DNA from: an uncultured Clostridia bacterium
GTDB lineage: Bacteria; Bacillota; Clostridia; Oscillospirales; CAG-272
Assembly (NCBI GenBank): GCA_937893945.1
Contig: CALCTA010000107.1
Span: 1-44,940, forward strand
DNA length: 44,940 nucleotides
Direction: 5' to 3'
Part shown: piece after piece, positions 22,190-40,661 of the stretch
Layout: every line of letters starts with the position of its first letter
How positions within the stretch are numbered: the stretch's first letter is position 1
Program-made: the position numbers and the translations under genes
The notes under the pieces: model-generated
Told to the model about the DNA's origin: nothing
Seen by the model: the letters and a program-made list of their open reading frames with translations, nothing else
Database searches by the model: none

Positions 22190-23608
22190 ATGGGCAAGTA
22201 TAAGCGATTATTATCGAATACTGCCATTCTGGGAGCAGGTACCTTTATTTCAAAGGTACTTGTTTTCCTGCTTATGCCGCTTTATACAGCTCTGCTTTCG
22301 ACCGAGGAATTCGGAACGGCAGATATTCTTACACAGACGGCAAATCTACTCATACCGCTTGCGGCATTGGGAATCGGAGACGCGCTTTTTAGATTTGCGC
22401 TTGATGCCGATGCCGATAACCGTAAGAAGATATTCGGAAGCGCTATAGGCGTGCTGCTTGCGGCAATGCCTTGCCTTGCTATCCTTATACAGCTTTTGCG
22501 CTTCTTTGATATATACGACGGATATATCTGGCTTGTGTTCTTTTATATCTGCGCGGCAAACCTTCATCTCGTATGCGCTAACTACCTCAGAGCATGCGAT
22601 AGGACTAAAGCGTTCGCAATACAGGGAATAGCCAATACGGCGCTTACTATATTGCTCAATATTCTGTTCCTCGTTGTCTTTGATATGGGGGTTCTCGGAT
22701 ACGTTTTGTCGGTAGCGGTCTCGGATATTCTTATAACTCTCGCAATATTCTTCATTTGTAAGCTATATCGAGAGATAAGATTTGATTTCAAGAACACTTC
22801 GCTCGTGCGCTCAATGCTGAAATTCGGCATACCCTATATCCCCACTACGATGATGTGGATGATAACCTCAGCAAGCGATAGATTTATCGTTACCGCATTC
22901 TCGGGAGCTGCAGAGAACGGACTTTATGCGGCTGCATATAAGCTTCCTACGCTCATATCCTTGGCGGGAGGAGTCTTTATAGAGGCTTGGCAATTCTCGT
23001 CCGTCAATGATGCTAAAAAGGAAGAAAGAGCAAAATTTTTCTCAGAGGTTTACAGAAATTACGTCGGAATAATGTTTATGGGCGCATCCTTGATAGTTGT
23101 ATTTGCAAAGCTTCTGACCGTGATGCTGCTTGACGAGTCCTATTATTCCTCGTGGCAATACGTTCCCGTCTTAAGCATTGCGATGATCTTTTCGGCGTTT
23201 TCCGCCTTTGTTGGAAGCGTTTATTTCCTTGAAAAGAGAAGTGTACGCTCGTTTATTACGGCGGCTGTCGGAGCGCTTACGAATGTAGTGCTGAACTTCT
23301 TGCTTATCCCACACTTTGGTGCGATGGGCGCGGCGATAGCTACGGCAATAAGCTATCTCGTTGCCTTTATCATACGTGCTTGCGATACGACGAAATATCT
23401 GCGATTTGATCTTTGTCCGTTTAAGGTTACGTTAAACACTCTGGCAATAGTGGCACAGACAGTAATAATGCTGCTTGAGCCTCCAATGTGGATACTTTGG
23501 CAGACGCTCTTTGTGGCGTTTATGCTGATCTTCAACGGCAGAGATATATTTAAAGCAATAATGCAGATTGCAAAGAAAATTTTAGGCAAAAAAAGAAAAA
23601 ATATTTAA
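22190..23608 (+). CDS. MOP-superfamily oligosaccharide/polysaccharide flippase (Wzx/RfbX-like)
   Basis: The 472-aa protein has about 12-14 TM segments and an N-terminus (LLSNTAILGAGTFISKVLVFLLMPLYTALLSTEEFG) typical of Polysacc_synt family exporters. Confidence 0.78.
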   Translation: MGKYKRLLSNTAILGAGTFISKVLVFLLMPLYTALLSTEEFGTADILTQTANLLIPLAALGIGDALFRFALDADADNRKKIFGSAIGVLLAAMPCLAILIQLLRFFDIYDGYIWLVFFYICAANLHLVCANYLRACDRTKAFAIQGIANTALTILLNILFLVVFDMGVLGYVLSVAVSDILITLAIFFICKLYREIRFDFKNTSLVRSMLKFGIPYIPTTMMWMITSASDRFIVTAFSGAAENGLYAAAYKLPTLISLAGGVFIEAWQFSSVNDAKKEERAKFFSEVYRNYVGIMFMGASLIVVFAKLLTVMLLDESYYSSWQYVPVLSIAMIFSAFSAFVGSVYFLEKRSVRSFITAAVGALTNVVLNFLLIPHFGAMGAAIATAISYLVAFIIRACDTTKYLRFDLCPFKVTLNTLAIVAQTVIMLLEPPMWILWQTLFVAFMLIFNGRDIFKAIMQIAKKILGKKRKNI

Positions 23609-24617: not shown

Positions 24618-25415
24618 TCATCCTCCGTAGGCGTGTGTTCTTATATATCTTAACACCTCGCGGTATGCCTCGGCATTAAGATGAAATCCGTCTCCGCTAT
24701 CGTAACAGCTCTTAAGAAATCCGTTCTCATCTTTCAGAGAATCAGCCGTGTTGAGATAAGGTAAGCCACACTCCTTTGCGAGAGAAGATGTCCATTCGTT
24801 AGTTCTGTCAATATAAGAGTTTAATACGTCTGCGCTCACGCTGTAGTTTGAGGTGTCCATATCCTTTGAAACGGGGAAGCAGGATTGAAGCATTATCACC
24901 GTGTCCGGCGAAGCCTCCTCTAACCTTGATATAAGCTTTTTGTAGCAGCCCTTGAAGTATTCCGAGCCCTTTGACATATTTCCCACAGCACCGTTAAGAC
25001 CAAAGGTCAAAAGAAGATATTTAGGCTTCTTTTTTGCCATGGCATCCGATATATCAAGCTCCTCGTTTGTGTCGGGGTAAAGTATCCTGCAGCTTGCTGT
25101 GGATGGATCGAGCATAAGCGTTCCGCTCTTTGGCGCCCAGACCTGTTTTGTGTCTTTACCGCCTGAGAGCACTCCTCGGCTCTTTAGATGATAGGTGGTG
25201 GACTCCCCGAGGAAAATGAAGGAATCTATATAGCTCTGACCTGCGTCCTCTGTCTTTTGAAGAGACGTGTCGCTGCCTTGAAGAGAGACCTCCACGTCCG
25301 GAAGAATAACCCCCGTCCCGTCTTCCTCGGTCTCCGGCTCCCTTGCGGAGCAGGATGAAGTCCACATATATATGATTACTATAAATAAAGAGAAAAAAAG
25401 CAACTTTTTTAGCAT
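24618..25415 (-). CDS. Secreted or anchored SGNH/GDSL-family hydrolase or acyltransferase
   Basis: N-terminal hydrophobic signal. Block I is FIFLGESTT (GES in place of GDS), block III is FGLNG, and block V is GDGFHLN (D-x-x-H). Confidence 0.78.
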   Translation of the reverse strand: MLKKLLFFSLFIVIIYMWTSSCSAREPETEEDGTGVILPDVEVSLQGSDTSLQKTEDAGQSYIDSFIFLGESTTYHLKSRGVLSGGKDTKQVWAPKSGTLMLDPSTASCRILYPDTNEELDISDAMAKKKPKYLLLTFGLNGAVGNMSKGSEYFKGCYKKLISRLEEASPDTVIMLQSCFPVSKDMDTSNYSVSADVLNSYIDRTNEWTSSLAKECGLPYLNTADSLKDENGFLKSCYDSGDGFHLNAEAYREVLRYIRTHAYGG

Positions 25416-32468: not shown

Positions 32469-33350
32469 ATGGAGAAAACAGTAAAAGCATACGCGAAAAT
32501 AAATCTTCATCTGGACGTTACGGGAATAAGAGAGGACGGATATCACTCTGTAGAGACGGTAATGCAATCACTCTCTCTTTGCGATGACGTTAGAGTTTGT
32601 CTTACCAATGACGGTTCAGTCTTTGCAAGCTGTAACATAGACGGACTGCCTACAGACGAGAGAAATATAGCAGTCAGAGCCGCACGACTTTATCTTGATA
32701 CGATCAAAAGTGATAAGGGCGCGTTTATCCGAATTGAAAAGCGGATACCTATGGCGGCAGGACTTGCGGGCGGCAGCGCAGATGCCGCGGCAACTCTCGT
32801 TGCGCTGAACAGTCTTTTTGAAAATGCGCTTACTGAGGGTGAGCTTCTCTCTCTTGGATCGTCTCTTGGCGCTGACGTGCCTTTCTGTATAGCTTGCGGA
32901 ACGCACTATTCCGACGGCAGAGGCGACCTGCTTCACGATTTTCCGAGCCTTAACGAAAGTACGGTCTTTGTAGTGGCATATGGCGGCGAAGGAGTTTCTA
33001 CTCCTTGGGGATATCAACTGCTTGATAAGACCTTTGATAACTTCAACGGATACTCTCCCGTAGGCTGTGAAGCCTTGAGAGAAGCTATTGCGAACGGAAC
33101 GGCTTTTGATTTTTCAGCACATCTTTTTAACATTTTTGAAGCTCCCGTCATAGCCGAGAGACCTGTCGCAAGGAGGCTCCTGGAGGCTCTAAAAGCGAGT
33201 GGCGCGCTTGCCGCAAGAATGAGCGGAAGCGGTCCTTCGGTTTTTGGAGTGTTTGATAGCATTGACTCTGCCCAGAGGGCTCTTGCGGCTATCTCACCCT
33301 TAGAATGCTTTGCGTGTATCTGCTATCCCGTGGGGAAAAGAAATAGTTAA
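32469..33350 (+). CDS. ispE: 4-(cytidine 5'-diphospho)-2-C-methyl-D-erythritol kinase
   Basis: KAYAKINLHLDVTGIREDGYH and the GHMP motif IPMAAGLAGGSADAAATL. I prefer the ATG at 32469 (GAGAGGA upstream) over 32445, which has no SD. Confidence 0.9.
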   Translation: MEKTVKAYAKINLHLDVTGIREDGYHSVETVMQSLSLCDDVRVCLTNDGSVFASCNIDGLPTDERNIAVRAARLYLDTIKSDKGAFIRIEKRIPMAAGLAGGSADAAATLVALNSLFENALTEGELLSLGSSLGADVPFCIACGTHYSDGRGDLLHDFPSLNESTVFVVAYGGEGVSTPWGYQLLDKTFDNFNGYSPVGCEALREAIANGTAFDFSAHLFNIFEAPVIAERPVARRLLEALKASGALAARMSGSGPSVFGVFDSIDSAQRALAAISPLECFACICYPVGKRNS

Positions 33351-33360
33351 AAAACTGCGT

Positions 33361-33397
33361 TATACAGCACATTTTCGGTTGACAAATGTGCTGTATA
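33361..33397 (+). other. 14-bp perfect inverted repeat overlapping the -35 box of the next operon
   Basis: TATACAGCACATTT (33361-33374), 9 nt, then AAATGTGCTGTATA (33384-33397). No U-tract follows. Confidence 0.6.
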
Positions 33398-33407
33398 GTT
33401 GTATAAT
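33379..33407 (+). promoter_or_regulatory. Sigma-A promoter of the six-gene acylation operon
   Basis: TTGACA (33379-33384), a 17-nt spacer, then TATAAT (33402-33407). Confidence 0.6.
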
Positions 33408-33445
33408 ATATTATATATAACCTTTATATAGTACGGAGGATTCCG

Positions 33446-34438
33446 ATGTCATATAGATCAGATAAAGAAAAAATGCAAAAGGAAGCGCAGGCGCACAGAA
33501 GATCGGTTCTTTTTATAATAAAAGTAACCTTTGTAGCATTCGCTGCCTTTCTTCTTATTTTTTGCGTTACGCTCGTTCTCTCAAGCGTTTTTGAGTGGGA
33601 CAGCAATTCAAATGGAGACGAAATAGCTCCGAGCATAACCCAGAATATGAACGTAGAGGGCTTTGAAGCCTACAACGGCGGCGTAGTAGGATACGTAGGC
33701 GTAACCCCAACCTTTAAGAAGTTTATATCTGTCAGCGATGATACCGACGAGACTCCTATAGTTTCTGTAGATCACAACGTTGATATAAATACCGTAGGAA
33801 CTTATACCGTAAGATATACCGTTGAGGATGCCTCGGGCAACGTTGCGCATAAAACGCTGATCTACGAGGTAAAGAAGGACGAGTACTCGCTCTCGAAGCT
33901 TATGTCTCTTATCGGAGAGAAAGCTGCCGAGCTTAAGATAACAAAGGAAATGTCAAAGGTACAGCAGGTTCGCGCTATTTACGATTACGTTCATACGAAC
34001 GTTAAGTTTACAGACGAGTCGAATATCCCGAATATCGATCGCAGTAAGTGGCAGAGCGATTGGCTCGAGGAGGCTGTACGCGGACTTGAGACGATGGAGG
34101 GCGACTGTTACACCTATTATTCGCTTTCTAAGGCCTTCTTTGAGTATTTCGGTATTGAAAGCTACGGAATCAAGCGCGCTGAGAACTACGAGGGCGCGGA
34201 GGATGACGGAACTCACTTCTGGAGTGCTGTAAACGTAGGAGCCGGAAGCGACAGATGGTATTATTACGACGCTACAAGACTTAACGGATATTTTAACGGA
34301 GATAGATCCGATAAGAACGCCTGCCTTATCACCGAGGCAAAGCTGAAGAGCCATAAGACCTCAAGCGGAGAGACTTATTTCTACAAGATGACTAAATCCT
34401 ACGATTTCCCGACTATTTCCACCGAGGAGCTTGACTGA
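33446..34438 (+). CDS. Membrane-anchored protein with an Ig-like (DUF5011-type) domain and a transglutaminase-like Cys-His-Asp core
   Basis: N-terminal TM segment (VLFIIKVTFVAFAAFLLIFCVTLVL). Ig-like block VDHNVDINTVGTYTVRYTVEDASGNVAHKTLIYEV. TGase core GDCYTY ... GTHFWSAV ... WYYYDAT. Confidence 0.78.
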   Translation: MSYRSDKEKMQKEAQAHRRSVLFIIKVTFVAFAAFLLIFCVTLVLSSVFEWDSNSNGDEIAPSITQNMNVEGFEAYNGGVVGYVGVTPTFKKFISVSDDTDETPIVSVDHNVDINTVGTYTVRYTVEDASGNVAHKTLIYEVKKDEYSLSKLMSLIGEKAAELKITKEMSKVQQVRAIYDYVHTNVKFTDESNIPNIDRSKWQSDWLEEAVRGLETMEGDCYTYYSLSKAFFEYFGIESYGIKRAENYEGAEDDGTHFWSAVNVGAGSDRWYYYDATRLNGYFNGDRSDKNACLITEAKLKSHKTSSGETYFYKMTKSYDFPTISTEELD

Positions 34439-34440
34439 TA

Positions 34441-35943
34441 ATGCAAAAAAATATTCTTGAATATCTTGAAAGCACCGTAAAGGTCTGCCCCGACAAATTA
34501 GCTTTTTCCACGGGCAAGGAGGGAATGACCTTCTCGGAGATATACACGCGCTCGCGTGCCGTTGGAAGCTTTCTCGCTGATAACGGATTTTACGGTGAGC
34601 CGATAGCTATAATAATGGACAAGCACCCCCGCACGCTCACGGCGTTCTGGGGAGTAAATTACGCCGGCTGTTTTTACGCTTGCATAGATGAAAAGATGCC
34701 CGAGGCGAGAATGAGCGCTATTATCGAAAAGCTCTCGCCAAGAGCTATTATCTGCGACACTAAAAACAGAAAGACCGCAGAAGCGCTCAACGTTGATACG
34801 GTGTATCTCTACGACGATATATGCAACTACCCAGTAAACGAGAGCGTACTTGCCGATATACGAGCAAAGCAGAGCAGTACCGACGCTATCTACGTTGCCT
34901 TCACATCAGGCTCTACGGGTACGCCCAAAGGAGTTGTAGCCGCGCACCGCTCGGTAATAGACTATACCGAAACACTTTGCGAAGCACTTGAGTTTGACAG
35001 CAATACTGTTTTCGGAAATCAGACACCGCTCTATTTTGATGCGCCCTTAAAAGAGATAATGCCTACCCTCAAGCTCGGCGCAACGACTTATTTTATCCCC
35101 AAGATGCTTTTCTCGTTTCCGGTCAAGCTTGTCGAATATCTTGACGAGCATAAAATTAACACTATCTGCTGGGTAGTGTCGGCACTCGTTCAGATATCCT
35201 CGCTCGGCGCACTTGAAAATCACACGCCTAAATATCTTACAAAGGTAGCGTTTGGAAGCGAGCTGTTCCCGAGAAAGCAGTACGATCTCTGGCGCGCAGC
35301 ACTTCCCGAAGCGGACTTTTATAATCTCTACGGTCCGACTGAGGCTACGGGAATGTCTTGCTATTGGAAGGCAGACAGAGAGCTGAATCCGGACGAGCCT
35401 ATCCCGATAGGTAGGCCGTTTGACAACACGGACATTATCCTTATAGACGAGGGCGTACGCTCAGAGCAGGGAGAGATATGCATACGCGGAACGTGTCTTA
35501 CTATGGGATACTATAACGATAAGGACAAGACAGACGCGGCATTCGTGCAGAATCCGCTTAATACGGCATACCCTGAGCTGATATATAAAACAGGGGATAT
35601 AGGCAGGATAAACGAGCGCGGAGAGCTTGTTTTCCTCTGCCGCAAGGACTCGCAGATAAAGCATATGGGACACCGCATCGAGCTTGGCGAGATCGAGAGC
35701 GCGGCACTCAAATGCGACGGCGTGCGAAGCGCTTGCTGTGTTTATGACAACGAGGGCAAGCGTATAGTTCTGTACGCGGTAGGAGATACCTCGCCAGAGG
35801 AAATAGCCTCTATATTACGCGGATATCTGCCGAGATATATGCTTCCCGCGCATATTGAAAAATTAGACGTGCTTCCGTTTACAACAAACGGAAAGATAGA
35901 CAGAAAAGGACTTAAGGAAAGAGCCGAGAAGGCGCTTTCTTAA
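34441..35943 (+). CDS. DltA-like stand-alone adenylation enzyme (carrier-protein ligase); substrate not assignable
   Basis: ANL/NRPS A-domain cores: A3 YVAFTSGSTGTPKGV, A4 FDAPLKE, A5 NLYGPTEAT, A7 YKTGD, A8 GHRIELGEIE and A10 NGKIDRK. The ATG lies 2 nt after the upstream stop. Confidence 0.85.
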   Translation: MQKNILEYLESTVKVCPDKLAFSTGKEGMTFSEIYTRSRAVGSFLADNGFYGEPIAIIMDKHPRTLTAFWGVNYAGCFYACIDEKMPEARMSAIIEKLSPRAIICDTKNRKTAEALNVDTVYLYDDICNYPVNESVLADIRAKQSSTDAIYVAFTSGSTGTPKGVVAAHRSVIDYTETLCEALEFDSNTVFGNQTPLYFDAPLKEIMPTLKLGATTYFIPKMLFSFPVKLVEYLDEHKINTICWVVSALVQISSLGALENHTPKYLTKVAFGSELFPRKQYDLWRAALPEADFYNLYGPTEATGMSCYWKADRELNPDEPIPIGRPFDNTDIILIDEGVRSEQGEICIRGTCLTMGYYNDKDKTDAAFVQNPLNTAYPELIYKTGDIGRINERGELVFLCRKDSQIKHMGHRIELGEIESAALKCDGVRSACCVYDNEGKRIVLYAVGDTSPEEIASILRGYLPRYMLPAHIEKLDVLPFTTNGKIDRKGLKERAEKALS

Positions 35944-35960
35944 CTAAGGAGAACATTGGT

Positions 35961-36188
35961 ATGGAAAAACTTATCGCAATTCTTTCCTCGCTTCATCCCG
36001 ACGTGGATTTTGAGAATAACGATTCGCTTATCGACGACGGTATTCTTGACTCCCTCGATATAGTAACTCTCGTTACCGAGATAAATGCTACCTTCGACGT
36101 TATCATTCCCGCCGAAGAGGTAGTTCCCGAGAATTTCAACTCAGCAGAGGCTCTTATGGAGCTTATCACAAGGCTTGACGAGGAATAA
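35961..36188 (+). CDS. DltC-like acyl/peptidyl carrier protein
   Basis: 75 aa with the phosphopantetheine attachment motif GILDSLDIVTLV. Confidence 0.85.
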   Translation: MEKLIAILSSLHPDVDFENNDSLIDDGILDSLDIVTLVTEINATFDVIIPAEEVVPENFNSAEALMELITRLDEE

Positions 36189-36197
36189 TAATACAAA

Positions 36198-37787
36198 ATG
36201 CTTTTTACGTCATACGGATTTATTCTCTTTATGGCTCTGCTGCTCTGCGTCTATTATATCTTCCCCAAGAAATATCAATGGACGCTTCTGCTTGTAGGCA
36301 GCTACTTTTTCTACGCCTTTTCGGGCATAGAGAACTTCGCGTTTATAATTTTTACGACTCTCTCGTGCTTCTTTATTGCGAGAGTGATAGAGAAGAGAAA
36401 GACACGCGAGGACGAATACGTAGCGCTCAACAAGGAAAGCTTGAGCAAGGAAGAGAGAAAGGCATACAGAGCAAAAGAGAAGAAAAAGAGATTTTATATT
36501 CTTGTTCTTGGATTGCTGCTTAATTTCGGAATTCTTGCAATTCTTAAATACACAGCCTTTGCAGTAAAGAATCTCAATAGCGCTCTTGTTATCTTCGGAG
36601 CTGATAAGCTTACCGTTCCCGATCTGATAATACCCTTAGGACTTTCCTTCTTTGTATTTCAAAGCACGGGATATCTTATCGACGTTTACAGAGGCAAGAC
36701 CTTTGCCGAGAAGAATATCGCAAGACTTGCGCTCTTCGTATCTTTCTTTCCGCAGCTTGCCCAAGGCCCTATCTCAAGACATTCTGACCTTGCCGCAGAG
36801 CTTTATACTCCGCACCCCTTTTGCGCCAAAGCGCTGAAGTTCGGCTTGCAGAGAATACTCTGGGGATACTTCAAGAAGCTTGTCATTGCAGACAGAGTGC
36901 TTGTAGCTATCAAGTCTCTCCTTGGAGATACCTCGTCCTATACGGGCGCTTACGTAGCTCTGCTTATCATTCTTTATTCAATAGAGATATACGCCGATTT
37001 CACTGGCGGAATAGATATAACTATCGGTATTGCCGAGGCAATGGGAATTCGCCTCAAGGAGAACTTCAATCATCCGTTCTCCTCGCGCTCGACCAAGGAG
37101 TATTGGAACAGATGGCATATCACGATGGGAAGCTGGTTTACAGATTACGTCTTTTATCCGCTCTCATTCTCAAGACCGATGATGAAGCTCTCGACCTGGA
37201 GCAGAGCTAAGCTCGGCAACGCGGTAGGAAAGAGATTGCCCGTATATATAGCGACCTCTGTAACTTGGTTCTTAACGGGACTATGGCACGGAGCGGCGTG
37301 GAACTTTATCGTCTGGGGAATGCTCAACTGCCTCGTTATTCTCGTCTCTCAGGAGCTTGAACCGCTTTACAGACGCTTCCGCGAGAAATTTCCTCGCCTT
37401 ACCGCATCCTACGGTTATCATTGCTTTGAGGCTTCGCGCACCTTCTTACTCATGGGACTTATCCGCTCGCTCGATTGCTACGCAAACGTGCCTCTCTCTT
37501 TTCGCATGTGGGGTAGTATGCTCACAACCTTCAATTACGGAAGCTGCTTTGGCGGAGGCATACTCGACCTCGGACTTGAGATAAAGGATTACGTTATTAT
37601 TGCAGTAGCCGTGGCAGTCGTGGCAGTAGTAGCAAAGATTTCCGAAAAACGAGATCTGCGCGAGTGGTTGCTTGGTAAGACTGTGCTTTCCTGGACACTA
37701 AGTGCGGCGATATTGATAGCAATAATCCTGTTTGGCGCTTACAGCATCGGATATGACGCATCACAGTTTATTTATACACAATTCTGA
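36198..37787 (+). CDS. MBOAT family O-acyltransferase (AlgI/DltB-like)
   Basis: 529 aa, multi-TM, with the conserved His block YWNRWHITMGSWFTDYVFYPL. Confidence 0.88.
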   Translation: MLFTSYGFILFMALLLCVYYIFPKKYQWTLLLVGSYFFYAFSGIENFAFIIFTTLSCFFIARVIEKRKTREDEYVALNKESLSKEERKAYRAKEKKKRFYILVLGLLLNFGILAILKYTAFAVKNLNSALVIFGADKLTVPDLIIPLGLSFFVFQSTGYLIDVYRGKTFAEKNIARLALFVSFFPQLAQGPISRHSDLAAELYTPHPFCAKALKFGLQRILWGYFKKLVIADRVLVAIKSLLGDTSSYTGAYVALLIILYSIEIYADFTGGIDITIGIAEAMGIRLKENFNHPFSSRSTKEYWNRWHITMGSWFTDYVFYPLSFSRPMMKLSTWSRAKLGNAVGKRLPVYIATSVTWFLTGLWHGAAWNFIVWGMLNCLVILVSQELEPLYRRFREKFPRLTASYGYHCFEASRTFLLMGLIRSLDCYANVPLSFRMWGSMLTTFNYGSCFGGGILDLGLEIKDYVIIAVAVAVVAVVAKISEKRDLREWLLGKTVLSWTLSAAILIAIILFGAYSIGYDASQFIYTQF

Positions 37788-37802
37788 TATATAGGAATAT
37801 AA

Positions 37803-38837
37803 ATGAAGAAAAAGATTTTAGTAAGCATAGCGGCGCTCCTGATAATAGTTCTGATACTCGGACTGCTTCAGGCGCTTGTCGTTCCAAAGTATATAACTAA
37901 TCCCGAAGGACTTCTTACGGGAGAATATTACGCCGACGCCGGCGGACACGACGTTATATTCGTGGGCGACTGTGAGGCTTATGAGAGCGTAGTGCCTTCG
38001 ATTTTATGGAAGGAATACGGTATCACCTCTTACGTGCGCGGCGGTGCTCAACAGCTTGTCTGGCATTCATATTATCTTCTTGAGGAGACCTTCAAATATG
38101 AGTCTCCAAAGGCGGTAGTGTTTAACGTTTACGCACTCAAATACGGCGAGCCGCAGAGCGAGGCGTATAACAGAATGACCTTTGACAATATGAAATGGTC
38201 AACTGCAAAGGTAAATGGAATATTCGCGTCTATGACCGAGGATGAGAGCTTTGTTGAATATCTCTTTCCCTTGCTCCGCTACCATTCCAGAATAACCGAG
38301 CTTGAAAAGACTGATTTCGAGTATTGGCTCAAAAGTCCTGAGGACGTATCGGACAACGGTTATCTTATGAAGACGGGCGTCAGACCTATGCCTGAGAGCG
38401 AGCCTATAACAGATGCTCCCGAGGAGCTTATACCCGATAGCTCTATAGAATATCTGGATAAGATGCGAGAGCTTTGCGCGGAGAATGACTGTGAGCTGAT
38501 ACTTATGAAAGCACCCACTAATCCGAGAGGATATTGGTGGTATGACGAGTGGGATGCGCAGATAACCGAATATGCAGAGCAGCATAGCCTGTCTTACTAT
38601 AATTTTATCCCTCACGCAGAGGAGATGGGCATAGACTGGCAGACAGATACCTACGACGAGGGACTTCACCTCAACGTTTACGGAGCAGAGAAGTTTACAA
38701 AGCATCTCGGTGCACTGCTTTCCGCAAAACACGGTATTGCCTCTCATAAGGATGAAGCCGACACACTCTCTCGTTGGAATGAATATCTCGACGAATATGA
38801 AAACAAGAAGAAGCAAATGGAGGACACCGATAAATGA
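37803..38837 (+). CDS. Membrane-anchored SGNH/DltD-like protein with Cys at the block-I nucleophile position
   Basis: N-terminal TM segment. Block I is VIFVGDCEAY (GDC at 37965-37973) and block V is DEGLHLN. Its position directly after the MBOAT matches that of DltD/AlgJ-type partners. Confidence 0.68.
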   Translation: MKKKILVSIAALLIIVLILGLLQALVVPKYITNPEGLLTGEYYADAGGHDVIFVGDCEAYESVVPSILWKEYGITSYVRGGAQQLVWHSYYLLEETFKYESPKAVVFNVYALKYGEPQSEAYNRMTFDNMKWSTAKVNGIFASMTEDESFVEYLFPLLRYHSRITELEKTDFEYWLKSPEDVSDNGYLMKTGVRPMPESEPITDAPEELIPDSSIEYLDKMRELCAENDCELILMKAPTNPRGYWWYDEWDAQITEYAEQHSLSYYNFIPHAEEMGIDWQTDTYDEGLHLNVYGAEKFTKHLGALLSAKHGIASHKDEADTLSRWNEYLDEYENKKKQMEDTDK

Positions 38838-39337
38838 AAGCTATTATGAAAATTTTGTGCGCGGTATTAGCGCTTATTTGCATTGGCACTATGACGCTAG
38901 CCTGCGATAGCTCAAACGACGATAACGGCGGAGCTTCGGGCGGCACGTTCGGTATTGTCTATAAGGACACTACCATCAAGCTCGACGAGAAGGCTGACGG
39001 AGTTCTCTCTAAGCTCGGCGAGCCTAAACACACCGATAATCTCGGAGATTGCGGCGGCATTGGCGTGCAGACCAAATACACCTTTGACGATATAGCAATC
39101 AACACCCTTAAGGAAAAGGACGGAGAGAAGATACACAAGATAGCCTTGCTCAACGACCTCGTTTCTACCTCTAAGGGTATTTCCATCGGATCAGACGAGG
39201 CGAGCGTCAAGGAAGCCTACGGTACACCCTCTGCTGAGGAGAACGGCAAGCTGATCTACAAGAGCGGAAATCTTGAGCTTGAGTTTACCGTTAAGGGCGG
39301 AAGTGTTACCGCTATAAATTATAGAAGAATAGTCTGA
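38834..39337 (+). CDS. Small lipoprotein of unknown function
   Basis: Lipobox TLAC. ATGA overlap with the upstream stop. The C-terminal GISIGSDEASVKEAYGTPS-type repeat is common in small secreted beta-proteins. Confidence 0.62.
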   Translation: MKAIMKILCAVLALICIGTMTLACDSSNDDNGGASGGTFGIVYKDTTIKLDEKADGVLSKLGEPKHTDNLGDCGGIGVQTKYTFDDIAINTLKEKDGEKIHKIALLNDLVSTSKGISIGSDEASVKEAYGTPSAEENGKLIYKSGNLELEFTVKGGSVTAINYRRIV

Positions 39338-39354
39338 ACAATATAGCAAAAAAG

Positions 39355-39406
39355 AAAAGAGAGTGCTGAAAAAACGATTTTTGTCGGAATTCGGCACTCT
39401 CTTTTT
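39355..39406 (+). terminator. Intrinsic terminator of the six-gene operon
   Basis: AAAAGAGAGTGC (39355-39366) pairs with GCACTCTCTTTT (39394-39405), with a 27-nt loop and a T-run. Confidence 0.6.
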
Positions 39407-39488
39407 GTGCTTTTATGAAAAAATAGAAAAAACTGCAATATTTTTAGCACTGTTCACAAATAATTAACAAAAAACTTTTAAAAAACCC

Positions 39489-39517
39489 TTGACAAACAGA
39501 GCAAAAAATGATAAATT
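39489..39517 (+). promoter_or_regulatory. Sigma-A promoter of the hrcA operon
   Basis: TTGACA (39489-39494), a 17-nt spacer ending in TGA, then TAAATT (39512-39517). Confidence 0.55.
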
Positions 39518-39529
39518 TTATACAGTGAT

Positions 39530-39556
39530 TTAGCACTTGAGGCAAAAGAGTGCTAA
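39530..39556 (+). promoter_or_regulatory. CIRCE operator (HrcA binding site)
   Basis: TTAGCACTT-N9-GAGTGCTAA against the consensus TTAGCACTC-N9-GAGTGCTAA. It lies between the -10 box and the hrcA SD. Confidence 0.92.
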
Positions 39557-39587
39557 ACCAAGTTAAAAAACGAGAGGAGAAAGGTTA

Positions 39588-40661
39588 ATGGGACACGAAA
39601 ATCTCAGCGAAAGAAAAAAGCTTATACTTAAGGCTATCGTTGAAGCTCATATTGACGGTGGCGAGCCTGTCGGTTCAAAGTATATAATGCAGAATAATCT
39701 TCTCTCATGCTCATCTGCAACGATAAGAAACGAAATGGCAGAGCTTGAGCAAATGGGCTACCTCGTACAGCCTCATACTTCAGCCGGCAGAGTGCCAAGC
39801 GAGGCAGGCTACAGATTTTACGTTGACGCTCTCGTGGAGCAGTACGCGAGAACCACTCACGAGGTGGTGCAGATAAATCAGCTTCTTAGAACAAAGATGA
39901 ACGAGCTTGATCAGCTTCTTGATACGGCGTCTCGTCTCGCTTCTACAATGACTAATTACACAGGCATTGCGATAAAGCCTAAGTCCAATTCGGTAACGAT
40001 GTCGAAATTTGAGATAATACCGATGGACCAGAACAATTTCGCGATGGTAATGATAAGCTCGGGCGGCGTTGTAAAGACTAAAAAGGTAAAGACTGCCGAG
40101 ATTATCCCCGAGGGAGCGCTTGCGAGACTTTCCGAACTTTTCAATTCGTCTCTGTGCGGAATTGGCGCGGATATGATAACTCTCCCGATAATTATGCGAC
40201 TTGAGGTCGAGATGGGAGATGCGGCATTCCTTGTAAACCCCACGGTCAAGTGTGTTTATGAGGTAATGAATGAAATTGACGGCGGAGAGATGAAGCTCTC
40301 GGGTCTTAATCATCTTCTTAAGTATCCCGAATACGCAGATACAGCGGAATTTGGTGAGCTGCTCGGAACACTTGAAAGTCAGGAGGAGATACTTGAGCTG
40401 GTATCTACCGCCGAGAGCGATGATATAAACGTCCTCATCGGTTCTGAAAGCTCTGTAAAGGTAATGAACAATTCCTCGCTCGTCTTTACACCGATAAAGA
40501 AGAACGGTCATACGATCGGCGTTATCGGCGTATTAGGACCGAGACGAATGAATTATAAACAGGTTTTAAAGGCCCTCGGAGACATAGGCGGAAGCATAGC
40601 GCAGATGATGGAAGAGGACAGACAGTTAAAGGAAGCAAATACAAAGGAAGGAGATAATTGA
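39588..40661 (+). CDS. hrcA: Heat-inducible transcription repressor HrcA
   Basis: LSERKKLILKAIVEAHIDGGEPVGSK...ATIRNEMAELEQMGYLVQPHTSAGRVPS, plus operon context. Confidence 0.95.
   Translation: MGHENLSERKKLILKAIVEAHIDGGEPVGSKYIMQNNLLSCSSATIRNEMAELEQMGYLVQPHTSAGRVPSEAGYRFYVDALVEQYARTTHEVVQINQLLRTKMNELDQLLDTASRLASTMTNYTGIAIKPKSNSVTMSKFEIIPMDQNNFAMVMISSGGVVKTKKVKTAEIIPEGALARLSELFNSSLCGIGADMITLPIIMRLEVEMGDAAFLVNPTVKCVYEVMNEIDGGEMKLSGLNHLLKYPEYADTAEFGELLGTLESQEEILELVSTAESDDINVLIGSESSVKVMNNSSLVFTPIKKNGHTIGVIGVLGPRRMNYKQVLKALGDIGGSIAQMMEEDRQLKEANTKEGDN

Follow-up and report, generated by a model that had tools for sequence, protein, structure and literature searches.

A probable carrier-fed envelope acylation operon with Dlt-like and PatA/AlgI-like halves in uncultured gut Clostridia

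Pairs that join an MBOAT (membrane-bound O-acyltransferase) with a protein of the SGNH family decorate polymers exported to the cell envelope, by way of D-alanylation of teichoic acids or O-acetylation of peptidoglycan, alginate and cellulose, and these additions govern how far a cell resists cationic peptides and lysozyme and influence how the host recognises it. We analyse here a stretch of DNA of 44,940 nucleotides (henceforth the window) from an uncultured Clostridia bacterium of the Oscillospirales (lineage CAG-272; GenBank assembly GCA_937893945.1, contig CALCTA010000107.1), in which six open reading frames (ORFs) of the same strand, at positions 33446-39337, appear to form an unusual member of this group. 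Their products, in order, are a transglutaminase-like protein (TG), an adenylating ligase (A), a phosphopantetheine carrier (C), an MBOAT (B), an SGNH-fold protein (S) and a lipoprotein (L).

Six genes under one promoter and one terminator

The first five ORFs are separated by 2, 17, 9 and 15 nt, while those of S and L overlap by 4 nt (ATGA), and the whole is bracketed by a predicted promoter and an intrinsic terminator (Table 1). An original prediction, made from the letters of the sequence alone, had proposed just such a unit, and the ORF coordinates reproduce its spacing exactly. The promoter is the sole perfect site, and the best-scoring one, in the 8 kb scanned (32500-40500); the terminator has a stem of 17 bp, and none of 200 shuffled sequences folds as stably. 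The products were identified by Pfam and NCBIfam profile searches, the equivalog cut-offs being used as thresholds, with the addition of AlphaFold2 and Foldseek for the fold of S and of the lipobox for L. The types assigned to the six proteins in the prediction were borne out in this way, and the motifs it had singled out (GDC, the FDAPLKE of A and a Cys/His/Asp triad) were all found, and homologues conserve them.

Table 1. Genes, codons and signals of the operon, in window coordinates
Feature	Positions	Strand	Remarks
Sigma-70-type promoter, TTGACA-17 nt-TATAAT	33379..33407	+	12/12 consensus; predicted
Ribosome-binding site, GGAGG	33435..33439	+	6 nt 5' of the first ATG
TG, membrane-anchored Ig (immunoglobulin)-like and transglutaminase-like protein, 330 amino acids (aa)	33446..34438	+	Pfam; transmembrane (TM) segment about 27-45; predicted extracytoplasmic
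A, stand-alone ligase of the non-ribosomal peptide synthetase type, 500 aa	34441..35943	+	AMP-binding and AMP-binding_C
C, phosphopantetheine carrier, 75 aa	35961..36188	+	PF00550, 26 bits; attachment Ser in GILDSLD
B, AlgI-type MBOAT, 529 aa	36198..37787	+	PF03062, 54 bits; His307, His364 (GLWHG)
FIYTQF codons (F524-I-Y526-T-Q-F529), FxYxxF motif	37767..37784	+	extreme C-terminus of B
S, TM-anchored (about 9-27) SGNH-fold protein, 344 aa	37803..38837	+	AlphaFold2 and Foldseek; predicted extracytoplasmic
Cys57 codon, predicted nucleophile of S	37971..37973	+	numbered from ORF start
L, lipoprotein with lipobox Cys24, 167 aa	38834..39337	+	hydrophobic N-terminus ends ...MTLAC24; lipidation predicted
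Intrinsic terminator, hairpin and U-run	39354..39406	+	minimum free energy -30.5 kcal/mol, z = -6.8

The proteins and their signature residues

In the Dlt system, the DltX microprotein holds an invariant tyrosine in a C-terminal FxYxxF 'acyl shuttle' motif, which DltB loads from DltC and which DltD unloads (PMC12148441). The tyrosine of FxYxxF is also the acyl-shuttle residue of PatA, from which the acyl group passes to the SGNH partner, and the MBOATs of the PatA/AlgI type carry the motif at their own C-terminus, after two extra TM helices (PMC12148441). B, which ends in ...SIGYDASQFIYTQF, shows by hydropathy two additional C-terminal hydrophobic segments (residues 464-486 and 496-516, approximately), followed by the motif FIYTQF. 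A C-terminal FIYxxF/Y closes about 75 of 78 B orthologues, as well as all complete metagenome relatives, be they of the Cys type or of the Ser type distinguished below. There is no separate DltX microprotein, as no other meaningful ORF of the window ends in FxYxxF: the lack of a DltX-like mini-ORF, pointed out in the original prediction, stands for what concerns an independent gene, but the function of DltX appears, as far as the sequence tells, to have been fused to the C-terminus of B. It is this fused tail, with its helices and its motif, that accounts for the extra length of B, which exceeds DltB by about 100 residues, as had been noticed.

Both conserved histidines of DltB align with histidines of B (WNRWH307 and GLWH364G), and GxWHG is found in 76 of 76 B orthologues. 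While DltB is the sole PDB sequence that B matches (85 bits over residues 143-384), its score against the DltB equivalog TIGR04091 (LTA_dltB) is 139.7 bits, for a cut-off of 375. Plasmid-borne genes described as 'MBOAT family O-acyltransferase/AlgI' give 158-201 bits in tblastn, with 30-34% identity over residues 1-400, and B is closer to MBOATs of the AlgI type than to DltB. Having a fused tail of the PatA/AlgI type next to a Dlt-like ligase and a Dlt-like carrier, the locus is therefore a hybrid.

The NCBIfam model that best describes the ligase A is the generic amino-acid adenylation domain (TIGR01733, 309 bits); against the DltA equivalogs it scores 247.4 bits (TIGR01734, cut-off 559.85) and 253.5 bits (NF003417, cut-off 476). 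Among PDB sequences it matches GrsA-PheA (182 bits), a gramicidin module (166 bits) and DltA (157/149 bits), its core being 31% identical to that of GrsA and 27% to that of DltA. The specificity pocket was read from a MAFFT alignment of A, 45 orthologues and the cores of GrsA and DltA, these cores being confirmed against PDB entries 1AMU and 3E7W. The code of A is D-A-K-C-V-F-L-G-M(-K), to be compared with D-A-W-T-I-A-A-I-C in GrsA and with D-L-M-T-M-C-T-V-A in Bacillus subtilis DltA, where positions 299 and 301 were placed by hand, anchored on a conserved glycine. A and DltA have only Asp235 and Lys517 in common: all the lining residues differ, and A has a phenylalanine at the position of Cys269 of DltA. 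Since Asp235 and Lys517 are retained, the substrate should bear an amino group and a carboxylate; and since the code is constant in 45 of 45 orthologues, save for V/I at one site, the pocket would be under selection for a substrate that is not D-alanine, the very residue that, according to the original prediction, should not be taken for granted. Lys239 hints that an acidic amino acid might be involved, and recalls the domains that activate glutamate, the Stachelhaus code of which we take to be DAKDLGVVDK, a weak guess. The further step from Lys239 to glutamate itself was considered and is unsupported, as the Ser-type relatives that possess a glutamate-2,3-aminomutase-like gene have isoleucine at position 239.

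The carrier C keeps the (D/N)SLD motif across its orthologues. It scores 32.9 bits against the DltC model NF003464 (cut-off 68) and 23.1 bits against TIGR01688 (cut-off 52.35), the best carrier model being that of an unrelated acyl carrier protein (ACP), AmcB (37.7 bits). Altogether, ligase, carrier and MBOAT are no orthologues of the dlt proteins, and in this respect the sub-cut-off scores and the pocket side with the prediction.

The identity of S could be recognized from its fold. Its Pfam match to Lipase_GDSL_2 is below threshold, it has no match to Pfam DltD at E <= 0.01, and a search of PDB sequences returned nothing meaningful. The AlphaFold2 model (predicted local distance difference test, pLDDT, 84; predicted template modelling score, pTM, 0.84) is matched by Foldseek to TesA and GDSL esterases and, from rank 26 down, to DltD (6pfx/3bma). 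Cys57 (GDCE, block I), Gly80, Asn108 and Asp285/His289 do not vary among 43 sequences. In the 150 best representatives of the family the column of Cys57 holds 52 Cys and 92 Ser, and His289 is present throughout; the Ser forms (G-S/N/D/A-S) belong to more distant relatives, at or below about 42% identity. As Cys57 aligns with the serine column of these relatives, it should mark the position of the nucleophile, in a subclade that switched from Ser to Cys. Over the 160 loci described in the next section the same column counts 134 Cys and 26 Ser, hence the names Cys type and Ser type, with His289 in 160 of 160; GDCE is kept in 74 of the 80 genome loci. Relatives of S are numerous (5768 clusters at 90% identity, 6441 representatives at 50%), and many of them carry PF27429, a family absent from the Pfam set that was searched with S. 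S belongs to another family than DltD.

The two accessory proteins are as well marked. TG combines a Bact_surface_Ig-like domain (PF16403, 36.3 bits) with a Transglut_core domain (PF01841, 28.3 bits for a gathering score of 23), both above cut-off, and its triad Cys221/His257/Asp275 (GDC221, TH257, YYD275) does not vary in 32 homologues that share 45-82% identity with it; strict regular expressions find all three motifs in 37 of 44 locus-derived orthologues. L gave nothing significant in Pfam or NCBIfam, and its domain, modelled by AlphaFold2 with pLDDT above 95, is a tandem alpha+4-beta repeat for which Foldseek proposes weak matches to YfeY (2qzb), YjgB/DUF4309 (4ygt) and a BLIP-like protein (3d4e). 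Despite an overall identity of about 25-60%, Cys24, Cys73 (GDCGG, a free cysteine), Asp108 and Gly119 of L are found in 77 of 77 orthologues. TG, S and L each carry an invariant cysteine, in the window each time in a G-D-C context. S is moreover fused to Ig and Transglut_core domains in P0302 and P0331 (Pfam-confirmed) and to L in P0295, P0299, P0303 and P0305.

We also observed that the first 21 residues of TG (33446-33508) contain a pattern, MSYxxDKExMxxE, that recurs in 32 homologues, with Met1 and Ser2 invariant and Tyr3 nearly so. A conserved cytoplasmic tail is unusual for a plain anchor, and this one could contact the ligase, the carrier or the MBOAT on their cytoplasmic face.

Conservation of the locus and its Ser-type relatives

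The 160 loci come from a genome scan with S and, for 80 of them, from a metagenome scan seeded with an alignment of five Ser-type sequences. At least 583 species-representative genomes contain relatives of S, and all are those of uncultured Clostridia, Eubacteriales or Oscillospiraceae, the habitat of which is the gut of ruminants and humans; the closest is a metagenome-assembled genome from sheep colon (Clostridia bacterium RGIG5316, L001), with 91% identity for S and 98% for HrcA. Full flanks, i.e. no less than 6.5 kb on the upstream side and 1.5 kb on the downstream side, are available for 77 loci, 72 of the Cys type and five of the Ser type. In the 72 Cys-type loci TG is found 63 times, A 62, C 71, B 72 and L 66; the five Ser-type loci have A in four, C in four and B in all five, with neither TG nor L. 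Nor is L found in any of the 13 Ser-type loci whose downstream flank extends over 1.5 kb or more; another gene begins there no further than about 100 nt from S. Most of the 72 Cys-type loci share the same gene order, down to 44% identity in S, and this recurrence goes far beyond chance; the order A-C-B-S, which the prediction had described as A-C-B-D-like, is common to Cys-type and Ser-type relatives. TG and L, for which it had expected conserved neighbourhood, are indeed kept beside S (63/72 and 66/72 Cys-type loci, to which the fusions must be added), and both appear to belong to the acylation system. A few loci are shuffled (L129:2786-5111, L155:7286-9605 and L140), with TG-S-L lacking A-C-B in between or C-B-S standing apart from TG-A-L, and the accessory genes even so remain near S.

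On the upstream side of the operon are ispE and htpG, on the downstream side hrcA-grpE-dnaK-dnaJ, the remaining window being made of housekeeping genes. The arrangement ispE-operon-hrcA recurs in many genomes, to about 50% identity in S, and hrcA-grpE is found downstream in more distant ones; the G+C content is 46.6% for the operon and 46.5% for the window. The view that the operon behaves as an inserted accessory module thus finds no support, and recent horizontal insertion is ruled out by the conserved synteny and the equal G+C content. Beyond the terminator, a CIRCE-type (controlling inverted repeat of chaperone expression) inverted repeat, TTAGCACTT-N9-GAGTGCTAA, at 39530-39556, is placed between a promoter-like site (39489-39517) and hrcA, as fits a heat-shock operon controlled by HrcA; TTAGCACTG, at about 39446-39454, resembles a CIRCE half-site. 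In the region 8-11 kb upstream of the operon are a GDSL-like lipase/acylhydrolase gene (24618-25415, minus strand) and a Polysacc_synt gene for a Wzx/MurJ-like flippase (22190-23608, plus strand).

The Ser-type relatives form a sister operon, ligase-carrier-MBOAT(FIYxxF)-Ser-type S (L083-L111; e.g. L100:4572-10238 and L090:4435-10297), of which we found no description in the literature searched. A radical S-adenosylmethionine gene of the KamA family directly follows S in 15 of the 26 Ser-type loci, that is, in nearly all those with downstream sequence. Its best match is glutamate 2,3-aminomutase, with about 597 bits for an equivalog cut-off of 650. No Cys-type operon has such a gene; in L109, one distant homologue of KamA is encoded upstream. 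The pocket of the Ser-type ligase, D-A-I-x-I/V-F-I-G-V (position 278 being left out of this comparison), is related to that of A without its Lys239. The link with an aminomutase suggests that the Ser-type substrate may be a beta-amino acid, and the product a beta-aminoacylated component of the envelope. One Ser-type relative adjoins glycosyltransferase genes of the GT2/GT11-like type. The existence of these sister operons makes carrier-fed MBOATs with a fused motif a wider family, which would have at least two chemistries.

Further relatives deserve mention. Carrier-less pairs of the B and S families are found in cultured Oscillospiraceae, such as Subdoligranulum variabile (L162), where the MBOAT ends in FIYFQF and the S-like partner has GSS. 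One Cys-type locus (L045:3414-6931) has, upstream, a second MBOAT of 469 aa, 28% identical to B, then ORFs of 414 and 304 aa; this might be a separate carrier-less acylation system beside the carrier-fed one. The closest relative of A in a cultured organism, at 40% identity, is from Paenibacillus cellulosilyticus (L081, NZ_CP054613.1, 6310-12316, where the record is unannotated), in a cluster that comprises a short-chain dehydrogenase/reductase, an aminoglycoside-N-acetyltransferase-like protein, the ligase, a GNAT protein, a carrier, a ketosynthase III (KSIII)-like protein and a protein of the metallo-beta-lactamase fold. Being an unrelated ligase-GNAT-ACP-KSIII cluster, it was dropped as a guide to the function of the operon.

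Proposed mechanism, alternatives and significance

Considering the gene content, the motifs, the folds, the conservation and the co-occurrence observed, we find it likely that the operon encodes a carrier-dependent MBOAT-SGNH machine for acylation of the envelope, in which a cytoplasmic half of the Dlt kind is joined to a membrane half of the PatA/AlgI kind. Its chemical steps, its topology, the amino acid and the acceptor may be pictured by analogy with Dlt and PatAB. A would adenylate an alpha-amino acid other than D-alanine and attach it, through a thioester bond, to the phosphopantetheine arm of C. B would dock the loaded carrier at the cytoplasmic face and, using His364, move the aminoacyl group to Tyr526 of FIYTQF, at the outer face. 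S would then take the group from the tyrosine ester onto Cys57, making a thioester where DltD and PatB make a serine oxyester, and hand it over to an acceptor of the envelope. TG and L could sit in the same extracytoplasmic complex and remove, relocate or further couple the group.

The likeness to DltXABCD would reside in a ligase that loads a small carrier, an MBOAT that relays the group to the tyrosine of an outer-face FxYxxF, and a TM-anchored SGNH protein that receives it. Unlike in Dlt, the ligase, the carrier and the MBOAT stay here below the equivalog cut-offs and the pocket is not that for D-alanine; the shuttle motif is borne by the MBOAT, with two extra helices, whereas it belongs to the DltX microprotein in Dlt; the SGNH partner is of another family, with Cys for Ser; and the order is A-C-B-S, with two extra conserved genes for extracytoplasmic proteins. 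As for PatA/PatB(/Ape1) and AlgI/AlgJ/AlgX, they share with the present system an MBOAT of about 470-530 aa ending in FxYxxF after two extra TM helices, and the PatAB and AlgIJ pairs also have a separate extracytoplasmic SGNH partner. The non-Dlt MBOAT-SGNH pathways, which depend on acyl-CoA, 'lack a similar carrier protein' (PMC12148441), whereas ligase and carrier genes lie here directly upstream of the MBOAT gene, both in the Cys type (62 and 71 of 72) and in the Ser type (4 of 5); the predicted nucleophile of the SGNH partner is moreover a cysteine, not a serine.

A precedent for such a cysteine does exist. TviD, the O-acetyltransferase of the Vi antigen, is SGNH-like and needs its block-I Cys and its block-V His for activity (PMC8760489), and hence shows that an SGNH-like acyltransferase can work with the nucleophile proposed for S. 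It differs from S in being cytoplasmic and membrane-associated, with a tetratricopeptide repeat domain, G-S-C in place of G-D-C, and neither block II nor block III; it is not the partner of an MBOAT and has no detectable sequence relationship to S. In the literature searched we found no SGNH protein with a Cys nucleophile as partner of an MBOAT. For TG, analogues rather than homologues come to mind. The pat operon has a dedicated esterase, Ape1, a possible analogue. DltE and FmtA are serine enzymes of the penicillin-binding-protein fold, to which TG, with its Ig-like domain and a Cys-His-Asp triad of the papain/transglutaminase fold, is not homologous. DltE of Lactiplantibacillus and FmtA of Staphylococcus are reported to be extracytoplasmic accessories of D-alanylation, esterases or transferases, that remove or relocate the group (PMC10241514, PMC13653941, PMC12505958). 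By this analogy they are, alongside Ape1, the most likely functional counterparts of TG.

Several observations weigh against this interpretation. The Pfam DltX model aligns end to end with the 46-aa tail of B with E = 0.2 and 11.7 bits, which is not significant; as this match is too weak, the case for a fused DltX is built on the motif, on how well it is conserved and on published work. The model of S resembles SGNH structures moderately, with template modelling scores of 0.35-0.41 on the query, and its block V reads D-x-x-x-H instead of D-x-x-H. The association with TG and L has its own weak points: in P0296 the internal lipobox is kept, so that this S-L 'fusion' may be a read-through in gene calling; tblastn may miss L in very distant loci; and full flanks exist for five Ser-type loci only. 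About ten Cys-type loci, finally, have C-B-S-L without adjacent TG or A, which makes of C-B-S-L the tightest core and implies that A may be encoded elsewhere or shared.

Could the operon be an ordinary dlt operon that diverged, made for D-alanylation of teichoic acids, with TG and L as unrelated neighbours? DltA is indeed the best NCBIfam name for A after the generic adenylation domain, DltB that for the MBOAT as well as the sole solved structure matched by the sequence of B, and DltD is among the fold matches of S. This is nevertheless highly improbable, as the scores (247/560, 140/375 and 33/68) are far under the equivalog cut-offs, the pocket reads DAKCVFLGM against DLMTMCTVA, with phenylalanine at the position of Cys269, and A is no nearer to DltA than to GrsA; B bears a fused shuttle motif that is absent from DltB, S has Cys for Ser and no Pfam DltD match, and TG and L recur both as neighbours of S and fused to it. 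Another possibility concerns the acceptor, which might be a lipid of the membrane or a small molecule that is secreted, the operon tailoring lipids or metabolites in the manner of non-ribosomal synthesis. The relative of A in P. cellulosilyticus stands in a cluster of metabolic appearance, neither a glycosyltransferase nor a polymer-synthesis gene is present within the six-gene operon, and in Vibrio the DltA/DltC-like pair of AlmEFG puts glycine on lipid A. We consider this unlikely, since every bacterial MBOAT-SGNH pair that has been characterised has an envelope polymer as its target (PMC12148441). S, TG and L, besides, all look like membrane-tethered extracytoplasmic proteins, and a Ser-type relative lies beside the GT2/GT11-like genes mentioned above.

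The acceptor might also be a protein of the cell surface, which the system would aminoacylate or cross-link; Cys73 of L itself may be the site, or the target may be proteins anchored in the wall, and TG would then act as a genuine transglutaminase or transpeptidase. In eukaryotes, MBOATs acylate secreted proteins, the Cys-His-Asp core of TG is intact, L maintains one invariant free cysteine (77/77) in spite of its fast divergence, and the switch from Ser to Cys in S goes together with the occurrence of TG and L. We know, however, of no bacterial precedent for a protein acceptor, the Transglut_core family is mostly one of hydrolases, and P0331 is a fusion of TG with a Ser-type S, so that a Cys-type partner is no strict requirement for TG: this variant seems quite unlikely to us.

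If we come back to the carrier-dependent acylation machine that we favour, a bolder version of it may be imagined, although we would hold it rather unlikely. The group would travel along an ATP-driven relay that uses extracellular thiols, from the carrier thioester to the Tyr526 ester, then to the Cys57 thioester and to Cys73 of L and/or Cys221 of TG. As amines attack thioesters with ease, an amide could result in the end, on an amine of peptidoglycan, of a wall polymer or of a surface protein, while the Ser-type sisters would install a beta-amino acid ester. Were this true, strict anaerobes would form peptide bonds without ribosomes on the outer face of their membrane, and the beta-amino acid ester of the Ser type would be a second unknown modification of the envelope.

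In the literature searched, where nothing was found on an MBOAT with an aminomutase, on such a dlt-like system, or on adenylation and carrier together with polysaccharide, MBOAT-SGNH systems fall into two classes: Dlt, fed by a carrier and provided with a separate DltX, and all others, fed by acyl-CoA and provided with a fused motif. This division is blurred by a system that is carrier-fed and yet has the fused motif. The same literature reports neither a carrier-fed MBOAT with a fused motif, nor a Cys nucleophile in the SGNH partner, nor two conserved accessory proteins that bear thiols. The change of nucleophile from Ser to Cys, which affects a whole clade, coincides with the gain of these two further thiol proteins. 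Given how widely the relatives are spread, the operon probably marks an unrecognised and abundant surface modification of gut anaerobes.

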